Virus record (IMG/VR): IMGVR_UViG_2703718778_000008
DNA from: a virus
Taxonomy: Duplodnaviria > Heunggongvirae > Uroviricota > Caudoviricetes
Length of the DNA stretch: 27,657 nucleotides
Direction: 5' to 3' (one strand)
How positions within the stretch are numbered: the first letter of the stretch is position 1; each line of letters starts with the position of its first letter. Below, in pieces: positions 13,581-27,657 of the stretch. The position numbers were made by a program, and so were the translations under genes. The notes beneath the pieces were generated by a model. That model was not told the origin of the DNA. It saw nothing but the letters and a program-made list of their open reading frames with translations, and did not search any database.

Positions 13581-15626
13581 TTATGCGGCGTTGCTGTTAT
13601 TGATATCCACCGTCACATACTCAATCAGCACGGGGTAGGTGTCCTGGTTACTGGTGATATCCGTGATCAGCAGTTTGTCGTTATCCAGTCCTGCCGCCGG
13701 GCATTTCGCCAGATTAAAGGCCGCCTGGGTCTGACCGTTGATGACCGGTGTCACGCTGATGCTGTTATTTCCGGCAAACCGGAACACCACGTTGTGCCAG
13801 TTATGATTAAATGCCCCGAAGGTTCCCAGTTTTGCATTCTGTTGTTTGTGCTGCATCAGATTCAGGTTTGCGCTGTCGCTCTGGATGAAGAAGGCGGCCA
13901 GCATATCGTTTCCTGCGCTGCCTTCCAGAACAACGTTTTCAGGTAGCTGAGAAACCGGCCAGTGCAGAGCCATGGCGAAGCGGTTTTCTGCCAGCTGAAC
14001 ACCTTCCGGGATTTTGAAACGAAAGGCAATTTCCCCGCCTTTCTGAAGTAATTCAGCTGCTTTACTTGCAGGCACATCGTGGGCGATTTTCCAGGCTGTT
14101 TGTTGCCCCTGGACTTTTTCCACTCGCATGGCTTTACCGCTCTGAGCAGCAGAGTCATTTACGACGGAGGCTTTTCCATCTGCCCCTGTCCAGCCCTGTT
14201 CTTTCAGTTTCCCTTCCTGTGCGTCTGCGCGATAAGCGACGGCCGTTGTTCTTGCCGGTGATGACTGCGTACCTGCGCCCGGCTGAGGTGCAGGTGTGTA
14301 GGGCTGCGGGCTTTCCGTGGTGGTGCTGTCTGAACCGGCCGTGGCGGGAGGTACTGCGACCACGCTGAACGGTGCGGGTGCACCTTTCAGGAAGGCGACG
14401 GTCTTCCCGGCATGCATCAGGATCGCCGTTGCCAGGCGGTCAGAAATAATGCCGCGGCGGGCCCATGAACTGAAATGCGTGGCGCGATCTGAAGAGGTCC
14501 AGTTTCCGTTACTACGGGATGCAGCACCGTAATAACCGGCTTCTGCCAGGTCAGGATCTTCGGCAGGCAGGTTTGTTGGCGTGTTAGCACCTTTCTCATC
14601 GGTCATCAGGGGCACAAAATAAATTTTTTGCGCTTCTTTGTTCTGATATGCACCGTAAACCACCGGGTACTGAGAGGTATATTGTTGTTTCCAGATATAG
14701 GTGGTATCGCCGCAAATCCAGGGAACAAGTGATGCGTTGCCTCCGGTGCACTGTGCAGCATATGCGCTGAGATCGGCGCGGAACTGATTCACCATGTTCA
14801 GGAATAATTGCGGGTGCTGTGCGTATGTTGCTGATTTCAGATCAAACTCTCCCAGCATCCAGACCACGGATAACAGGACGTTTTTGGGGTTTTTATCCAG
14901 CGCGGCTTTTGTACGGGTAAGCAGATCGTTATACAGCGGTTTGCCGACGCCCCACAGGGATGATTCGGCCGTTGCTCCTGAAGATTCACTGAATGCCCCC
15001 TCAGCGCCGGAAGTAAGCGCTGACCCTCCACGACAGCAAGGTACCAGGAGGATCCCTGCATTTTTCGGGATAAACGCCAGTAATTTTTTGGCAATATGTA
15101 AACCCTGTCCGACGCAGCCATACTGACCTTTTGACAGATCGGCGTTCGGATGATTAAGGCTGCTCATATCCTGTACATCATGGAGACAGTGATCTGCCGG
15201 AATAATATCGTTATAGGTACATGCAGCGCCGCCCGGTGTTACCGTACTGCGACGCGCTAACTGTTTAATTCGTGGATCAGGACTGTCGAATGTATCGGGT
15301 AATGGCAGCCCCTCACCGTATGCCATGCCATTGGACTGACCAGCCAGTGGCACCACATAATAAAACTCTGGCTCAGTTGTGTGTCCAGTGTCGTATCCGT
15401 CGGTAGTGCCCGGTACGGGGTTTTCCTCGCCTTTTGGTACCGGAATGGCTGATGGCAGGTCTCTGTCAGTGACCAGTGCCTGCATCAGGTAAAATGGTGC
15501 TCCCGGCTCTGATGCTGAGACAGGTCCCCCAAGAAGTCCCCATCCTTCCCTGAGCATGGGCGCAAGTTTTTCGGCAAGTTCCTTGTTCGTCATTGCCGTC
15601 ACAAGCTGATAATGTTTCGGTACCAT
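13581..15626 (-). CDS. DUF1737 / sialate-O-acetylesterase (SASA, SGNH-like) domain protein, NanS-p-like, with a C-terminal extension
   Basis: N-terminal ...HYQLVTAMTNKELAEKLAPMLREGWGLLGGPV...YLMQALV (DUF1737-like), then ...YYVVPLAGQSNGMAYGEG... (the GQSN catalytic motif of SASA esterases). Start taken at ATG 15626 (GGAG upstream). Confidence 0.65.
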   Translation of the reverse strand: MVPKHYQLVTAMTNKELAEKLAPMLREGWGLLGGPVSASEPGAPFYLMQALVTDRDLPSAIPVPKGEENPVPGTTDGYDTGHTTEPEFYYVVPLAGQSNGMAYGEGLPLPDTFDSPDPRIKQLARRSTVTPGGAACTYNDIIPADHCLHDVQDMSSLNHPNADLSKGQYGCVGQGLHIAKKLLAFIPKNAGILLVPCCRGGSALTSGAEGAFSESSGATAESSLWGVGKPLYNDLLTRTKAALDKNPKNVLLSVVWMLGEFDLKSATYAQHPQLFLNMVNQFRADLSAYAAQCTGGNASLVPWICGDTTYIWKQQYTSQYPVVYGAYQNKEAQKIYFVPLMTDEKGANTPTNLPAEDPDLAEAGYYGAASRSNGNWTSSDRATHFSSWARRGIISDRLATAILMHAGKTVAFLKGAPAPFSVVAVPPATAGSDSTTTESPQPYTPAPQPGAGTQSSPARTTAVAYRADAQEGKLKEQGWTGADGKASVVNDSAAQSGKAMRVEKVQGQQTAWKIAHDVPASKAAELLQKGGEIAFRFKIPEGVQLAENRFAMALHWPVSQLPENVVLEGSAGNDMLAAFFIQSDSANLNLMQHKQQNAKLGTFGAFNHNWHNVVFRFAGNNSISVTPVINGQTQAAFNLAKCPAAGLDNDKLLITDITSNQDTYPVLIEYVTVDINNSNAA

Positions 15627-15636
15627 AGTGACTCCG

Positions 15637-15912
15637 TTATTTTTCATGAGTGTTCATTCGTGCTGTCCGCTGCCGCTCCAGCCCGGCAATGGCGGCTTTA
15701 TCGGCATTACAACTGTCCAGGGCATCTACCAGTCGGTCTCCCCAGTCAGCCACATCAGCCCATATCATGTGTTGCGGCAGCACCGGTACCGGCGTCTGTC
15801 TGGTCAGACTTTCCGGCACGCTCCCGCAAATGACGCCGGTTTTCAGCGGCGCTGGCGTGTTGTTGCAGGCTGTCAGCAACATCAGCAGGGGGAGAAGTGC
15901 GTGCGCACTCAT
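15637..15912 (-). CDS. lysC: o-spanin (Rz1/LysC-like outer-membrane lipoprotein), nested in and extending past lysB
   Basis: MSAHALLPLLMLLTACNN...: signal peptide with lipobox LTAC. Lies in a different frame overlapping the 3' part of lysB, as in the P2 lysB/lysC arrangement. Confidence 0.6.
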   Translation of the reverse strand: MSAHALLPLLMLLTACNNTPAPLKTGVICGSVPESLTRQTPVPVLPQHMIWADVADWGDRLVDALDSCNADKAAIAGLERQRTARMNTHEK

Positions 15913-22478: not shown

Positions 22479-23522
22479 ATGAGTAAACGCAAAAAATACA
22501 CCGGAAAGCGGGGGCAGGATTCGCTACACGATGCACTGAAATCAACGCCTGCACTCAGCGCATTCACCTTTGATGGGCCCTATGAAGTCAGCCGCATGGA
22601 TCTCCTGGATAACATGTCATGTGCAGATAACGGGCGCTACTTTGATACCCCCATGGACTGGAACGCTATCGCCCGTGCATCCCGTCGTGCGTCCTGGCAT
22701 CAGTCGGCTTTGTACTTCAAGCGCAACGCCCTGAACGGGTGCTTTGTTCCTCACCCTCTGCTGTCCCGCCAGGCGTTTTCAGCCTTTGCGCTCGACTGGT
22801 TTGTGTTTGGTAATGCCTATCTTGAAGTGCGGCGTAACAGGCTGGGGGAACCACTCCTGCTTCGCCCGGCACTGGCAAAATATACACGCAGGGGAAGTGA
22901 CCTGGATACCTACTGGTATCTCAACGACGACGGTACGGAGTTCAGTTTCAGGAAAGGGACTGTGTGCCACGTGCTTAATCCTGATATTAATCAGGAGATC
23001 TACGGGATGCCGGAATATATCGGCGGGTTGCTGTCTGTCAGCCTGTCAAACTCAGCGGATACATTCCGCAAGCTCTACTACGATAACGGCTCGCATGCCG
23101 GGTGTATTATCTATGTAGGCACACCTCAGGCGAATGCGGAAAGTGTCGAGGCCATTAAAAAAACGCTTACGGATTCCCGTGGTCGCGGGGCGTTTAAAAA
23201 CCTGTTTCTTCATGCGCCGGGTGGTGGCAAGGATGGTGTGCAAATACTGCCGTTCCAGCAGATAACCGCAAAGGATGAATTCCTGAACATCAAGGGGAGC
23301 GCCCGCGACGATATCCTTGCTGCCCATCGTGTACCACCTCAACTGATGGGGGCAATGCCTGACGGGAATGCGGCGTTTGGTGACGTTGAGAAAGCGGCGA
23401 GGGTGTTTTTCATCAACGAGTTGCAACCTGTCATGGAGGCCATGAAGCATGTCAATGAATGGCTTGGCGTTGAGGTGATGCGCTTTAACCCCTATGCCCT
23501 GCTTCTGGATAACGCCAGCTGA
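22479..23522 (+). CDS. Q: Portal protein
   Basis: 347 aa directly downstream of P; sequence reminiscent of P2 gpQ. Confidence 0.9.
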   Translation: MSKRKKYTGKRGQDSLHDALKSTPALSAFTFDGPYEVSRMDLLDNMSCADNGRYFDTPMDWNAIARASRRASWHQSALYFKRNALNGCFVPHPLLSRQAFSAFALDWFVFGNAYLEVRRNRLGEPLLLRPALAKYTRRGSDLDTYWYLNDDGTEFSFRKGTVCHVLNPDINQEIYGMPEYIGGLLSVSLSNSADTFRKLYYDNGSHAGCIIYVGTPQANAESVEAIKKTLTDSRGRGAFKNLFLHAPGGGKDGVQILPFQQITAKDEFLNIKGSARDDILAAHRVPPQLMGAMPDGNAAFGDVEKAARVFFINELQPVMEAMKHVNEWLGVEVMRFNPYALLLDNAS

Positions 23523-23587: not shown

Positions 23588-24091
23588 TTAACGGAATGCG
23601 GATGGCGTTCTTCTTTGCAGCTTGCTGATAATATGCATCTTCATACTGTTTACTATCGGCAGCCATTCCCTGTCACCGTCTCCGTTGATGACCACGCGAA
23701 TGGAGGTATCATCTTCCACGCGAACCCGAAGAGATACACCGTCTTTTCCGACGGAATGTAACTCCATTGCCAGGACTATGTTTACCGACTCTCCTTCATC
23801 GTGTGAGTCAACCCATGTTCTTACAGCCATCCGGAATATGTTATCTGTGTCGGTTGCAATCATATTTACCGGAAATGGCCTGAAGTCCCGATCGTTTCTG
23901 CACGGAAACCCCGTATCAACGTAACGATGATGCTCGCCGTCTTTGTCTTCCCATGTCTCTGAAGGCAATTCCAGCCACTGCTCATAAAAAGCAACCAGCT
24001 TTTCAGCCTGATTGCGCAGAATCCCTGTAACCTCCCGCCTCGCGTCCCGGCTCTTTTTGTTTGCCAGGTACAAATCGCGAAAATGGCTCAT
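23588..24091 (-). CDS. Hypothetical protein (167 aa), accessory hotspot gene
   Basis: Strong RBS (AAGGAG 6 nt upstream of ATG 24091). Acidic, no transmembrane segment, no motif I can assign. Confidence 0.6.
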   Translation of the reverse strand: MSHFRDLYLANKKSRDARREVTGILRNQAEKLVAFYEQWLELPSETWEDKDGEHHRYVDTGFPCRNDRDFRPFPVNMIATDTDNIFRMAVRTWVDSHDEGESVNIVLAMELHSVGKDGVSLRVRVEDDTSIRVVINGDGDREWLPIVNSMKMHIISKLQRRTPSAFR

Positions 24092-24711
24092 GTCGCTCTC
24101 CTTTGGTCTGTTTATGCCAGCCTGTATTCTGCGCTCACCTCATATTGTGCGCAAGTTTTCACCCGTGAATGACTGATACTTTAAATTCTATTAACTTTAT
24201 GATTTCAGTGATTTTTGTCTCTCTTTTTTATCCCGTTCGTCACGTCCGTTTCCCTCCCGATCTCCGACCTCGCCAGACGCAATCAGACGCATTCTGACGG
24301 CCTGTTTCCCTGACCATGTTTTGATGTGGTTTTTCAAAACTGGCTTCACTGCGCGCGTATCACGCGCAATACGACCCCAAATAAAGCAACCTGCCTTCCA
24401 CCCCTCAATTCGGGCGCCCTTCCCTCGTCGCCTGCGCGCTGCAATTGCCTCGTTTTTCGTGCACCGTGCAAAGTGGCTTCAGCCCGCGCCGTTACTGGGC
24501 TGAGTGGGGATGAAACACATAAGAAAAATTGTGCAATTTCGTGCACTTTTGTGCAGTTTGAAACGGGTATCTGTTTGACACTGGTACTTACTTTGCGCTA
24601 ACTTTACTCGACCAGAAATTTCAATGAATCGGATGAGGTTGTTTGTCATACGACCTCGGTTAGCTAGGTTGCCTTAATCAAAAGGCATGTTTGATACTGG
24701 AGGAGGTTAAT

Positions 24712-24747
24712 ATGAATAAAGCATTTGACGAATTTGATGGATTCTGA
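24712..24747 (+). CDS. Candidate leader peptide (11 aa, MNKAFDEFDGF)
   Basis: Near-perfect RBS GGAGGAGG (24699-24706) 5 nt before the ATG; followed 20 nt later by an intrinsic terminator. Confidence 0.3.
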   Translation: MNKAFDEFDGF

Positions 24748-24766
24748 ATGTGTTAACCTCGATAAG

Positions 24767-24795
24767 GCGGAGACTGATCTCCGCCTTTTTTATTG
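24767..24795 (+). terminator. Intrinsic terminator / candidate attenuator immediately upstream of the hotspot gene at 24806
   Basis: GGCGGAG (24767-24773) / CTCCGCC (24780-24786), loop ACTGAT, followed by TTTTTTATT. Confidence 0.65.
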
Positions 24796-24805
24796 GTAAA
24801 GAAAT

Positions 24806-25309
24806 ATGGCTATGGACTCAGTAACGATACAAATCATTAGCAATATGATAGTCCTGTTTGGTGTCATTGTTGCTATCTGTACAATTATCTATAACGTTCG
24901 TACGGCAAAAAAAACACAAACCGCTAATTTTTTATTTGAAAGTCGCCAGGATAAGGAATACCTGGAATCATTACATCTCCTCAGGAGAATTCATCGCTCA
25001 GGGAAATCGTTTCGTGCTTATGTTTTTCCTTGTGAAGGCGGGGCTATTACGGAAGAGGAGATGACCGAACGTCGCAAGTTTCAGTACATTCTTAACTTTT
25101 ACGAGAGAGTTGCAGTTAGTATCCGTGAAGGTATTTATGATGAAAGGATGATCAAACGAACGTCCTTTACAACGATTATTACAACTTATGATATTGCAGA
25201 ACCCCTGATTAAGGCTATCAGAGAAGATACTCAATCAAAAACAGCGTACCAGGAGTTTGAATGGCTGGTAAAACGATGGAAAGCTCGTCCTCTTGATAGG
25301 GATGTGTAG
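24806..25309 (+). CDS. Hypothetical membrane-anchored protein (167 aa), AT-rich accessory hotspot gene
   Basis: Markedly lower GC by eye than surrounding phage genes. N-terminal hydrophobic helix IQIISNMIVLFGVIVAICTIIY followed by a charged soluble domain; no recognisable catalytic motif. Confidence 0.6.
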   Translation: MAMDSVTIQIISNMIVLFGVIVAICTIIYNVRTAKKTQTANFLFESRQDKEYLESLHLLRRIHRSGKSFRAYVFPCEGGAITEEEMTERRKFQYILNFYERVAVSIREGIYDERMIKRTSFTTIITTYDIAEPLIKAIREDTQSKTAYQEFEWLVKRWKARPLDRDV

Positions 25310-25324
25310 TTTATTTCTTGCATT

Positions 25325-25351
25325 AGAGCGAGGTTATTGGTGCCTCGCTCT
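25325..25351. terminator. Stem-loop between convergent genes, candidate terminator
   Basis: AGAGCGAGG (25325-25333) / CCTCGCTCT (25343-25351), 9-nt loop. Confidence 0.4.
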
Positions 25352-25356
25352 TTAAA

Positions 25357-25674
25357 TTATCGAGCCGTTCTTGCGCTCATGATGCTTTGCGCCAGCAACT
25401 GCCAGCCCTCTTTCTGTTGCCCGCGCTTGTCCTGATACCTGTTTACCTGCAAGTTTCCGTGCACCAGAATCAGATCGCCTTTTCTGTGTTTTGCCAGTTC
25501 TTCGTGCTGCTTCCCGAATGCAATAAGGTAAAGCCACATTGTGGTTGGCTGTTCTGCGCCATGGCAGGGTAGTGATACCGCCAGTTGTGCCGTTGTGACG
25601 TTGGTTCCTTTGGTTGTTCTCCTTGTGTTCGGGTCTGCTGCCAGTCGTCCCTCTGTTGCAACCTGTGTTGGCAT
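25357..25674 (-). CDS. Short SSB-like OB-fold protein (105 aa)
   Basis: ...MWLYLIAFGKQHEELAKHRKGDLILVHGNLQVNRYQDKRGQQKEGWQ... parallels the E. coli SSB core (...[42 protein letters not shown]...); lacks the acidic C-terminal tail. GGGAGA upstream of ATG. Confidence 0.5.
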   Translation of the reverse strand: MPTQVATEGRLAADPNTRRTTKGTNVTTAQLAVSLPCHGAEQPTTMWLYLIAFGKQHEELAKHRKGDLILVHGNLQVNRYQDKRGQQKEGWQLLAQSIMSARTAR

Positions 25675-25706
25675 ATTTGTCTCCCGTGTTGGTTTTATTG
25701 TTGGGG

Positions 25707-26045
25707 TTAGATGGCTGGCAGATCTCCGCCAGCGCCGTAGATAAACAGAATTCGCTTCATGATTTCGCTGCGCTTACAGGCTTCGATGACTGATTTTTCC
25801 TGTTGCCATTCTGCCCGTTGCGCCAGCTCCAGTCGTTCCTTTTCCGTTAGCTTCCGGTAATGCGTTATCTTGTCCGTGTACCCGTCCACAACCAGCAGCC
25901 CTTCGCGTACCATCTTCCCGGCGGCCTGATTAATGATGGTCCTTTTCACGCCCAGTTTTTCAACCAGCTCTGGTGCGCTGAAGCGTGCGTGCGTTTCCAG
26001 GTAGCGTAAAATGATTACCTTTCCGGTCATTCTGGGTGTCTTCAT
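25707..26045 (-). CDS. Putative winged-helix DNA-binding protein (about 112 aa)
   Basis: ...ILRYLETHARFSAPELVEKLGVKRTIINQAAGKMVREGLLVV... looks like a wHTH. Start set at the internal ATG that overlaps the upstream stop (ATGA). Confidence 0.4.
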   Translation of the reverse strand: MKTPRMTGKVIILRYLETHARFSAPELVEKLGVKRTIINQAAGKMVREGLLVVDGYTDKITHYRKLTEKERLELAQRAEWQQEKSVIEACKRSEIMKRILFIYGAGGDLPAI

Positions 26046-26212
26046 TTGGCGGCTCCTTCGTTGTTCCGGCGTTCGCGGAGTTCGGTCAGTGCTGCCAGTA
26101 AATTTTCCCACCATGTTTCTTCCACAACCGGATTTCGTCGTGAAAGCAGCTGCTGCGCCGACTCAATCATTTTCGTAAGCTCTTTGTCGCTGATCCTCCT
26201 GATGTCGTTCAT
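26042..26212 (-). CDS. Small hypothetical protein (56 aa)
   Basis: Internal ATG preceded by AAGGAG 7 nt upstream: MNDIRRISDKELTKMIESAQQLL... Confidence 0.4.
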   Translation of the reverse strand: MNDIRRISDKELTKMIESAQQLLSRRNPVVEETWWENLLAALTELRERRNNEGAAK

Positions 26213-26260
26213 GGTGTGCTCCTTCGGTTTGCTGTTTCTGGTCATGTTCATGGTCTTTTG

Positions 26261-26665
26261 TTACCTGCGTGATTGCCTGCTGGCGGCCGAATGCACATAG
26301 CGGACAATTGCCGCTTTTCGGTTAACGACGGCCAGCGTTCTTGCCAGTTCTTCGTTGAGTTTTCTGGTCTGTTTTTCGTGGTATGCCTGCATGATTTTTC
26401 CTACGGGAGTCAGTGGTTCAGGCTCTGATATGGCGCGACGAGGGCGCACGGCAACGATGAATGCGCTTCTGTCGGTGTTGATTCTTGCAGTCAGGATGTC
26501 GGTCATAACGGTGTCTGTGCTGCGATCGGGACTGGCGATCGTGATTTCCAGTTCGTCGCCTGGCTGCGGTCGAACACTGACGCCGCTCAGTGTCAGTGCC
26601 GGAATGCGTGCGTTCATGATGGTGCTGAAATCATGGCGCTGGAGTACGCAATGGAATCGTGTCAT
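26261..26665 (-). CDS. Hypothetical protein (134 aa) translationally coupled to gene A
   Basis: ATG overlaps the stop of A (ATGA) with GGAGG upstream; no motif recognised. Occupies the position of P2 orf91. Confidence 0.5.
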   Translation of the reverse strand: MTRFHCVLQRHDFSTIMNARIPALTLSGVSVRPQPGDELEITIASPDRSTDTVMTDILTARINTDRSAFIVAVRPRRAISEPEPLTPVGKIMQAYHEKQTRKLNEELARTLAVVNRKAAIVRYVHSAASRQSRR

Positions 26666-27657
26666 GGGTTAACCTCCGGTTGATCTGCTGCCACCAGGCT
26701 TCGTGATTTTTCATCCCAGTGCACAATCCGCCCGTCAGGCAGGCGAACGCGTGCACCTCTGTGTACGGAAAGTGCTGCGCCACTGTGTAGCTCCTCGCCC
26801 GTCGTGCTCAGTGCCGACTTGATTACGGTGGTGGTGACGTCAGTCAGCGGCAATGCTGTACGCACATGTATGACGTCATCGGGCGTGGTGGGGCCGCCGG
26901 TTTTCACGGTTTTTGTGTCAGATGGCGCATCTTTCAGCTGCCTGGTGAGTTGTTTTCTCTCTGTGGGGGTCAGTGACCTTAACCATTCGCTCAAATCACC
27001 TTCCGGGATGGTCAGTTTTTGTTCTTTCCTGGTTTCCGGTGGTGGGGTTTTACCCTCTCCGGTGTCTGTTTTTTCATCATGGGGACAGTTATTGCCACGA
27101 GTCCAAGGTGCGGCGAAGCCGCCCCCAACGTCAAAATCCTCGTCCGTGCTGTTGTCGGCTTTCGCTTCTTTTCTGACCAGTTTCCACTCGTCCGGATGGG
27201 TGCAGATGGTGTAGCGCTCGCCGAGCGACGGGGCACAAATTCCGTAGATGCGCTGCGGGAATTCGCCGTAGTCGTTGGCCTCATCTGCGGTTTCGTATGC
27301 GGTGCGGATCAGGTACAGGTTGCGCGGAATGAGCACGCCGCCCTGACGGTTGATGTAGGTGGCAAAACACCCCACGTCAGCGGCGGCCAGAATGGCGTCA
27401 ATATGGTCATGGTCCAGGCGCTTCGGTGATGCGGGGTTACGCTCCATTTGTCCGGCAAGGCGGCGGAGTTCACGCCATACCTGGCGGGGCGGGATACCGA
27501 AGAACTGGAACTGCCGGATGCGGTGGAGACTCGCCCAGGCAATGGCGTTTTCCACGGTTTCCGCCATGGTTTTTCCCGCTTCTTTATCGGCGTAAGGTTT
27601 GCCGGTTTTCGGGTCATTGTCGTGAAAGGTGCTGGCGTCCAGGTTCTTGCCAATATA
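26662..27657 (-). CDS. A: Replication initiation protein A (rolling-circle endonuclease), 3' portion only; 5' end lies beyond the window
   Basis: The minus-strand frame is open from the window edge (no stop in 27568-27657) and continues through the track ORF 26662-27567. Assignment rests mainly on synteny and size; no HUH or tyrosine motif falls in this part. Confidence 0.55.
   Translation of the reverse strand, partial: YIGKNLDASTFHDNDPKTGKPYADKEAGKTMAETVENAIAWASLHRIRQFQFFGIPPRQVWRELRRLAGQMERNPASPKRLDHDHIDAILAAADVGCFATYINRQGGVLIPRNLYLIRTAYETADEANDYGEFPQRIYGICAPSLGERYTICTHPDEWKLVRKEAKADNSTDEDFDVGGGFAAPWTRGNNCPHDEKTDTGEGKTPPPETRKEQKLTIPEGDLSEWLRSLTPTERKQLTRQLKDAPSDTKTVKTGGPTTPDDVIHVRTALPLTDVTTTVIKSALSTTGEELHSGAALSVHRGARVRLPDGRIVHWDEKSRSLVAADQPEVNP

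Follow-up and report, generated by a model that had tools for sequence, protein, structure and literature searches.

The stretch of DNA analysed here, hereafter the window (27,657 nucleotides (nt); IMG/VR virus record IMGVR_UViG_2703718778_000008), derives from a P2-like (Peduoviridae) prophage of E. coli, and this report concerns the string of four small genes, g1 to g4, that lies downstream of the replication gene A at positions 25357 to 26665. Over this region the window is 99% identical to the prophages of strains JNEC-KY179 and JNEC-KY208, and its late genes are 98-99.5% identical to those of several other strains; among sequenced phages, the P88 group (Xuanwuvirus) comes closest in the C-terminal third of A, with only ~61% identity. 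The prophage is arranged in the order terminase, portal gene Q, a conserved gene for a protein of 167 amino acids (aa), the stretch in which cos is expected, a DUF4760 gene, the four open reading frames (ORFs) and A. The 3′ part of A, which runs off the window, occupies positions 26662-27657 on the minus strand and is assigned by phrog_91/phrog_6857 and by the RefSeq name “replication endonuclease” in the 99%-identical prophages.

The original prediction that A is followed by four co-directional and tightly coupled ORFs, the second of them 56 aa long, holds. All four genes lie on the minus strand, and two ATGA overlaps tie A to g1 and g2 to g3. The first gene, g1 (26261-26665; 134 aa), has a GGAGG site 8 nt upstream of the ATG that overlaps the stop codon of A, and matches phrog_14984 with E 5.8e-80. 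The longest ORF for g2 spans 26042-26251 (69 aa), but the residues that precede the ATG at 26212 vary among relatives and conservation begins at that codon; the gene proper (26042-26212; 56 aa) starts there, 7 nt after an AAGGAG site, and covers phrog_14672 end to end (56/56 positions). Similarly, the mechanical ORF of g3 reaches 26114 (135 aa), and the gene itself (25707-26045; 112 aa), preceded by AAGGAG, begins with an ATG overlapping the g2 stop codon. The last gene of the operon, g4 (25357-25674; 105 aa), is preceded by a GGAG site and begins 32 nt after g3. Between the convergent g4 and DUF4760 genes lies a 9-bp inverted repeat, AGAGCGAGG-N9-CCTCGCTCT (25325-25351), which probably serves as terminator and marks the junction with the hotspot cargo; in three related loci (L002, L015, and L008) a different hairpin followed by a T-run is found 3′ of g4.

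All four genes are under purifying selection. Compared with diverged copies in other E. coli prophages, the ratio of non-synonymous to synonymous substitution rates (dN/dS) is 0.11-0.33 for g1, 0.20-0.44 for g2, 0.12-0.30 for g3, and 0.23-0.51 for g4, and since these values (0.11-0.51) are well below 1, all four ORFs are real coding genes. From A to the end of g4, a consensus scan of the coding strand detects no sigma-70-like promoter and no terminator-like site. The G+C fraction (GC) of g1-g4 (0.49-0.58) resembles that of A (0.54-0.61), whereas the adjacent DUF4760 cassette is at 0.37-0.41.

The product of g4 belongs to the single-strand DNA-binding (SSB) protein family. It matches the Pfam SSB model PF00436 over residues 4-98 with 55.6 bits (cut-off 26) and TIGR00621 with 50.9 bits, slightly below the cut-off of 53.95, as well as 26 solved SSB structures among the PDB sequences (best E 2e-10), with the SsbB structure 3VDY among the weak matches. 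Judged by these profile and structure matches, g4 is a true SSB-family oligonucleotide/oligosaccharide-binding (OB) fold, and the proposal that the 105-aa protein is an SSB-type OB fold devoid of an acidic tail is borne out. Its likeness to E. coli SSB (PDB 1EQQ/1EYG; the sequence aligned was verified against PDB 1EQQ) is that of the OB domain, with 29% identity over 85 residues (E 3e-9). Three of the four aromatics with which E. coli SSB contacts single-stranded DNA (ssDNA), W54, F60, and W88, are matched in the alignment by W47, F53, and Y80 of g4, and W47 and F53 are invariant among the copies compared; H55 of the E. coli protein is not conserved. Unlike E. coli SSB, g4 stops where the OB core of the E. 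coli protein ends (~residue 115), without the disordered linker and the DDDIPF tip. Its C-terminus reads ...SARTAR, whereas tailed relatives go on with PGG...PPYDDDF.

The closest relatives of g4 share 45-56% identity over all 105 residues (~54% for the nearest tailed ones) and are found in Klebsiella, Enterobacter, Pantoea, Raoultella, Rosenbergiella, and Edwardsiella. Most of them are 139-152 aa long and end, after a linker rich in Gly/Gln, in an acidic tip (PPYDDDF, PPFDDETPF, or PPFDDDIPF), although a few database members of the clade are shorter (115-138 aa) and have no tip. Their genes lie directly downstream of primase-helicase genes (DUF927, Toprim, or D5 type) in islands with integrase/AlpA genes. 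Like g4, these SSBs of enterobacterial integrative elements thus follow the replication gene of their element directly and sit beside variable cargo; unlike g4, none is near an A-type endonuclease or g1-g3. A scan of one genome per species retrieved 12 loci, among which no P2-like prophage with a tailed SSB after A was found; the protein is tailed at all 10 loci where the match is full-length, and none is near A or g1-g3. Because its nearest relatives keep the linker and the acidic tip and sit after the primase/helicase genes of integrative elements, g4 belongs to a mobile-element SSB clade and is a derived form that has lost the tail. Among 50,697 phage records searched by tblastn, the only matches to g4 are distant SSBs of Faecalibacterium and Enterococcus phages.

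Small SSB derivatives of this kind have precedents. PriB and the competence protein SsbB of Firmicutes are OB-only derivatives of SSB, of ~105-115 aa, that bind ssDNA without the interaction hub formed by the SSB tip. The likeness of g4 to them is that of small OB-only proteins derived from SSB, ssDNA binding being predicted only in the case of g4, and it differs from them in being phage-borne and a recent derivative of a tailed mobile-element SSB. An assignment of g4 as a PriB-like protein was rejected: BLASTP gives no alignment to E. coli PriB at E ≤ 100 (query verified against PDB 1TXY), and the 17 NCBIfam matches of g4, all to SSB models except for one weak “hypothetical protein” model, include no PriB model. 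In the primase-helicase islands of Enterobacter and Klebsiella (L017, L019, and L003), the SSB gene opens a variable region that includes GAPS4-type PDDEXK and Abi_2 genes, and the tail length of the island SSBs varies (115, 135, 138, and 147 aa). Erosion of SSB 3′ ends beside swapping cargo may therefore be recurrent.

Another possibility is that g4 is functionless, i.e., an SSB gene whose 3′ end was clipped by recombination of the adjacent hotspot cargo and which is now decaying. In favor of this, g4 borders the region of swapping, its last ~10 nt contain a junction that is not the same in all prophages, the gene is missing from some relatives, one copy has lost 20 internal codons, and the integrative-element relatives have tails of varying length (115, 135, and 138 aa). 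However, the four full-length copies compared, as well as the database variants P0001-P0003, are all of 105 aa, and the copies stop at the boundary of the OB domain despite differing by up to 25% of their amino acids. Indeed, a recent nonsense mutation does not account for the loss of the tail, since the full-length E. coli copies fetched (75-96% identical) all end at the same residue in spite of 20-25% divergence in amino acids, the sequences after the stop codon differ between prophages and the DNA 3′ of it encodes no tail in any frame continuing from the stop. Both the start codon and the ribosome-binding site are intact, the ssDNA-contact residues W47 and F53 do not vary, and dN/dS is 0.23-0.31 over dS of 0.17-0.37. 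Altogether, decay of g4 is an unlikely explanation.

The third gene encodes a homologue of the lambda protein Ren. A pairwise BLASTP alignment of g3 and lambda Ren gives 42% identity (E 6e-24), with M1 of Ren aligned to M6 of g3, and the PHROG profile of “Ren-like exclusion protein” (phrog_142) is matched with E 4.7e-28 over 104 of its 116 positions. The near full-length alignment takes in MTGK at the start, INQAA in the recognition helix, and the motif C..S..MKR.L..YG at the C-terminal end. Searched by tblastn against the 50,697 phage records, g3 has 170 matches (E 4e-15 to lambda); nearly all of the annotated rows listed adjoin P or a DnaC-like loader and most are annotated as ren, and none of the 170 records listed is a P2-like phage. 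By this full-length similarity, g3 is a homologue of lambda Ren. The two proteins are alike in size (~100 aa) and in the position of their genes, which close the replication gene cluster of a temperate phage. On the one hand, ren lies directly after P or a DnaC-like loader in lambdoid phages, which replicate by O/P; on the other hand, g3 belongs to a P2-like phage with the rolling-circle initiator A and comes after A, g1, and g2 in a single coupled series, separated from the initiator by two small genes. The g3 product also differs by a 6-residue insert and a longer C-terminus. Ren is reportedly required for the resistance of lambda to Rex exclusion. It is non-essential (PMC10695390), and ren has been described as likely to act in replication, both O and Ren having been found by two-hybrid assay to interact with Rex proteins (bioRxiv 10.1101/2021.04.19.439022).

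The AlphaFold2 (AF2) model of g3 (predicted local distance difference test (pLDDT) 77, core 85-92) has the order helix-strand-helix-helix-wing, with a winged helix from residue 8 followed by three short helices, and Foldseek retrieves winged helices of the MarR, ArsR, and MecI types with probability 1.0, but with E ~3e-3, which is fold-level support only. The winged helix-turn-helix assignment made from the sequence alone is thus supported by the model and the fold matches, and is refined from a generic DNA-binding protein to a Ren homologue. In RefSeq the protein is named “MarR family”, and one could take g3 for an ordinary MarR-type transcription factor that binds repeats such as the GTGCA cluster and regulates phage or cargo genes. 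This cluster, five GTGCA motifs in ~100 bp (24459-24555), lies between Q and the cargo, in a stretch that is conserved in most of the related prophages fetched and in which cos is expected by synteny; with up to 3 mismatches allowed, the 19-mer of P2 cos is not found. Although the fold, the Pfam MarR_2 match, and the conservation of the cluster in several g3-carrying prophages would agree with such a regulator, which the original prediction also had binding these repeats, the MarR_2 score is 24.7 bits, below the cut-off of 27, and covers residues 33-76 only, the full-length homology is to Ren, and the 112-aa model has no N-terminal dimerization helices, whereas MarR proteins are ~140-150 aa long with flanking helices, so that a MarR-type role is distinctly unlikely. 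The repeats were discarded as a target of g3 for want of any association: one prophage (L009) keeps g3 without a GTGCA cluster within the 10.8 kb fetched, and GTGCA is not enriched window-wide (84 found vs. 89 expected).

No Pfam, NCBIfam, PADLOC, or PDB sequence match was found for g1; a Pfam search with 8 family members at E ≤ 10 returned noise only, and a profile search of 1.84 billion representative proteins found only 3 related clusters, all from E. coli-type prophages. Two repeat proteins that matched the profile share a short PGD-x-I-x-Y/I-T-I-like motif only and were judged spurious. By these searches, g1 is an orphan restricted to E. coli. Its AF2 model is poor (pLDDT 62.9, predicted TM score 0.29), with a predicted small alpha/beta N-terminal part and a long C-terminal helix, and Foldseek finds nothing in the PDB below E 1.7 for it. 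In P2 (NC_001895), A is followed by Orf91 and then by tin and old, in agreement with the statement that P2 has only orf91 here. Orf91 (DUF3850) occupies the same slot as g1 with the same ATGA overlap with the stop codon of A, yet has no sequence or profile similarity to it (hhalign probability 0.2%), a result on which an ASCH/DUF3850-like N-terminal domain was rejected for g1. The small peptide encoded by g2 is helical, its Trp-rich core, EETWWENLLAALTELRERR, being invariant; the PDB holds no informative match for it.

Sliding-window comparison with four related loci (L013, L014, L008, and L009) delimits a divergent block, from ~26160-26350 to ~27050, that consists of g1 and the last ~130 codons of A. 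Nucleotide identity in the block is 0.56-0.70, whereas the flanks on both sides are mostly at 0.85-1.0. At the protein level, g1 is 0.59-0.63 identical, the last 100 residues of A 0.42-0.57, and the rest of the A fragment 0.79-0.91. The origin nick of P2 lies 427 nt before the stop codon of A (NC_001895), which corresponds to the edge of the block (~27090 in the window). Because g1 and the C-terminal ~130 residues of A diverge as one allelic block that adjoins the position of the P2 origin, g1 is proposed as the partner of this part of A; the pattern suggests a joint action of g1 with either the C-terminal domain of A or the origin.

At least 80% of the cassette is present in 27 of 5,426 complete E. 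coli genomes. No sequenced phage was found to carry it, either by megablast or by tblastn of g1 and g2 against the 50,697 phage records, and none of the P2-like phages in the collection has any of the four genes. The homology among prophages breaks at the stop codon of g4, beyond which DUF4760, TumE/HVO_A0114, or other genes alternate. PADLOC has no match for g1, g2, or g4, and only weak, generic winged-helix matches for g3 (E ≥ 2e-4). Since they are coupled to A, have a backbone-like GC, precede the homology break at the g4 stop codon, and have no PADLOC match, g1-g4 are placed on the backbone side of the boundary. The best reading is that they are the 3′-terminal, backbone-type genes of the early replication operon, rather than cargo of the A-Q hotspot.

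The interval between gpA and gpQ (portal gene Q, 22479-23522, plus strand) is a published defense hotspot (PMC9122126; PMC13586616). From this location it could be argued that all four genes, or g3 and g4 at the least, are defense cargo of the hotspot, expressed in the lysogen to exclude other phages; the tail-less SSB, for instance, would poison an incoming phage in its ssDNA metabolism. The arrangement “hypothetical + SSB + hypothetical x3” stands among the catalogued hotspot loci, namely in the supplementary list of Rousset et al. (2022), with the accessions of g1 and g2 of one related locus (L015) and uncharacterized there; presence and absence vary among related prophages. Moreover, P2 itself carries in the equivalent region the hotspot gene tin, whose product targets a phage SSB. 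In contrast, g1-g4 are on the same strand as A, to which translational coupling ties them, no promoter-like site was found on that strand of the cassette, its composition is that of the backbone and not that of the AT-rich neighboring cargo, no defense model matches g1, g2, or g4, wherever homologues of g3 and g4 occur elsewhere, they come after replication genes, and the break in homology exactly after the g4 stop codon implies that swapping cargo starts downstream of it. Of the marks by which cargo can be told, i.e., a separate transcription unit, foreign composition, and swapping, none is displayed by g1-g4, the presence or absence of g3 and g4 being their sole cargo-like trait. Taken together, we consider hotspot cargo a very doubtful identity for these genes.

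On balance, the four genes are probably early-operon accessories that are made together with A during lytic replication and that act in replication or against exclusion, rather than cargo expressed by the prophage. In such a scheme, g1-g4 would be co-expressed with A when the phage replicates, and g4 would coat the single strand displaced by rolling-circle replication from the A nick. Without a tip, it would not recruit ExoI, RecJ, RecQ, RecO, PriA, Ung, or the chi subunit of Pol III, so that the strand would be protected and not processed. The g3 product would be a Ren-type accessory linked to replication, which might allow escape from Rex-type abortive exclusion by resident lambdoid prophages, and g1 would be the partner of the C-terminal ~130 residues of A.

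Several observations weigh against this view. The comparison of the segment in related prophages reveals a graded and dispensable set: other prophages retain g1-g3, g1-g2 alone, or g1 alone, and all four genes are missing from P88. All four genes lie inside the gpA-gpQ interval that Rousset et al. treat as a defense hotspot. The promoter and terminator scans were simple consensus scans only. With respect to g3, to say that it works like Ren carries over a phenotype and not a mechanism. As for g4, the fourth ssDNA-contact aromatic is not conserved, the position of W40 of E. coli SSB falling in a shortened loop without an aromatic; the copy of E. coli strain Bongo (L008:4999-5256) is reduced to 85 aa by an in-frame deletion of 20 codons between two RLA/QLA motifs, which removes the first strands of the OB fold; and the closest pair of copies has a dN/dS of 0.51, from only 8 substitutions.

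A bolder version, which we hold to be improbable, would make the tail-less SSB an active counter-measure. The OB core, bound to phage (and host) ssDNA, would exclude ExoI, RecJ, RecQ, RecFOR, and PriA from the replication intermediates of the phage and could blunt defense sensing that depends on the SSB tip; together with the Ren-like g3 it would form an anti-defense module, to which g1 and the C-terminus of A would add a second layer specific to the origin or the initiator. Phage SSBs trigger several defense systems, such as Retron-Eco8, AbpAB, DARNA, and DRT10. Loss of the tail as an escape from Retron-Eco8 was set aside as unlikely, given that deletion of the C-tail of T7 SSB leaves Eco8 activation unaffected (PMC13402713).

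Other features of the window lie outside the four genes. The AT-rich cargo cassette (24600-25350; GC 0.37-0.41) holds the DUF4760 gene (24806-25309, plus strand; PF15956, E 2.7e-35) and is confined to the two closest prophages; the others fetched have TumE/HVO_A0114 toxin-antitoxin genes, another hypothetical gene, or no annotated gene. An 11-codon ORF, MNKAFDEFDGF, with a strong GGAGG site (24713-24748) and a 10-bp GC-rich hairpin with a T-run (24764-24787) lie just upstream of the DUF4760 start, and the region 24700-24791 could be a leader/attenuator or a small RNA; Rfam yields a sub-threshold isrP match only (27.6 bits vs. a cut-off of 45), outside g1-g4. The 167-aa protein (23588-24091, minus strand; phrog_5091, no Pfam match), whose gene adjoins the portal gene, is annotated in most of the related prophages fetched whatever the cargo, and its gene is therefore regarded as a backbone gene inside the nominal hotspot. 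Finally, a 688-aa ORF (13581-15647, minus strand) is presumably the gene that RefSeq names “DUF6645 domain-containing” just after the lysis genes of L001; to our knowledge, P2 has no counterpart of such a large gene at this position.

RefSeq already annotates the cassette, and Rousset et al. (2022) list it. What is added here is the identity of g3 as Ren, the derived loss of the SSB tail, the exact boundary of the hotspot, and the co-variation of g1 with A, which amounts to a modest refinement and not to a new kind of system. In these prophages, the annotation “MarR family regulator” should give way to that of a Ren homologue, the first seen here outside lambdoid-type replication modules. A mobile-element SSB that has no partner-recruiting tail and yet is under purifying selection is a natural experiment on the function of that tail, and would make a useful probe of the defense systems that are triggered by SSB. 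In this lineage, the boundary of the P2 A-Q hotspot is the stop codon of g4 and not the end of A, which matters for defense mining in which all genes between gpA and gpQ are counted as candidate cargo.

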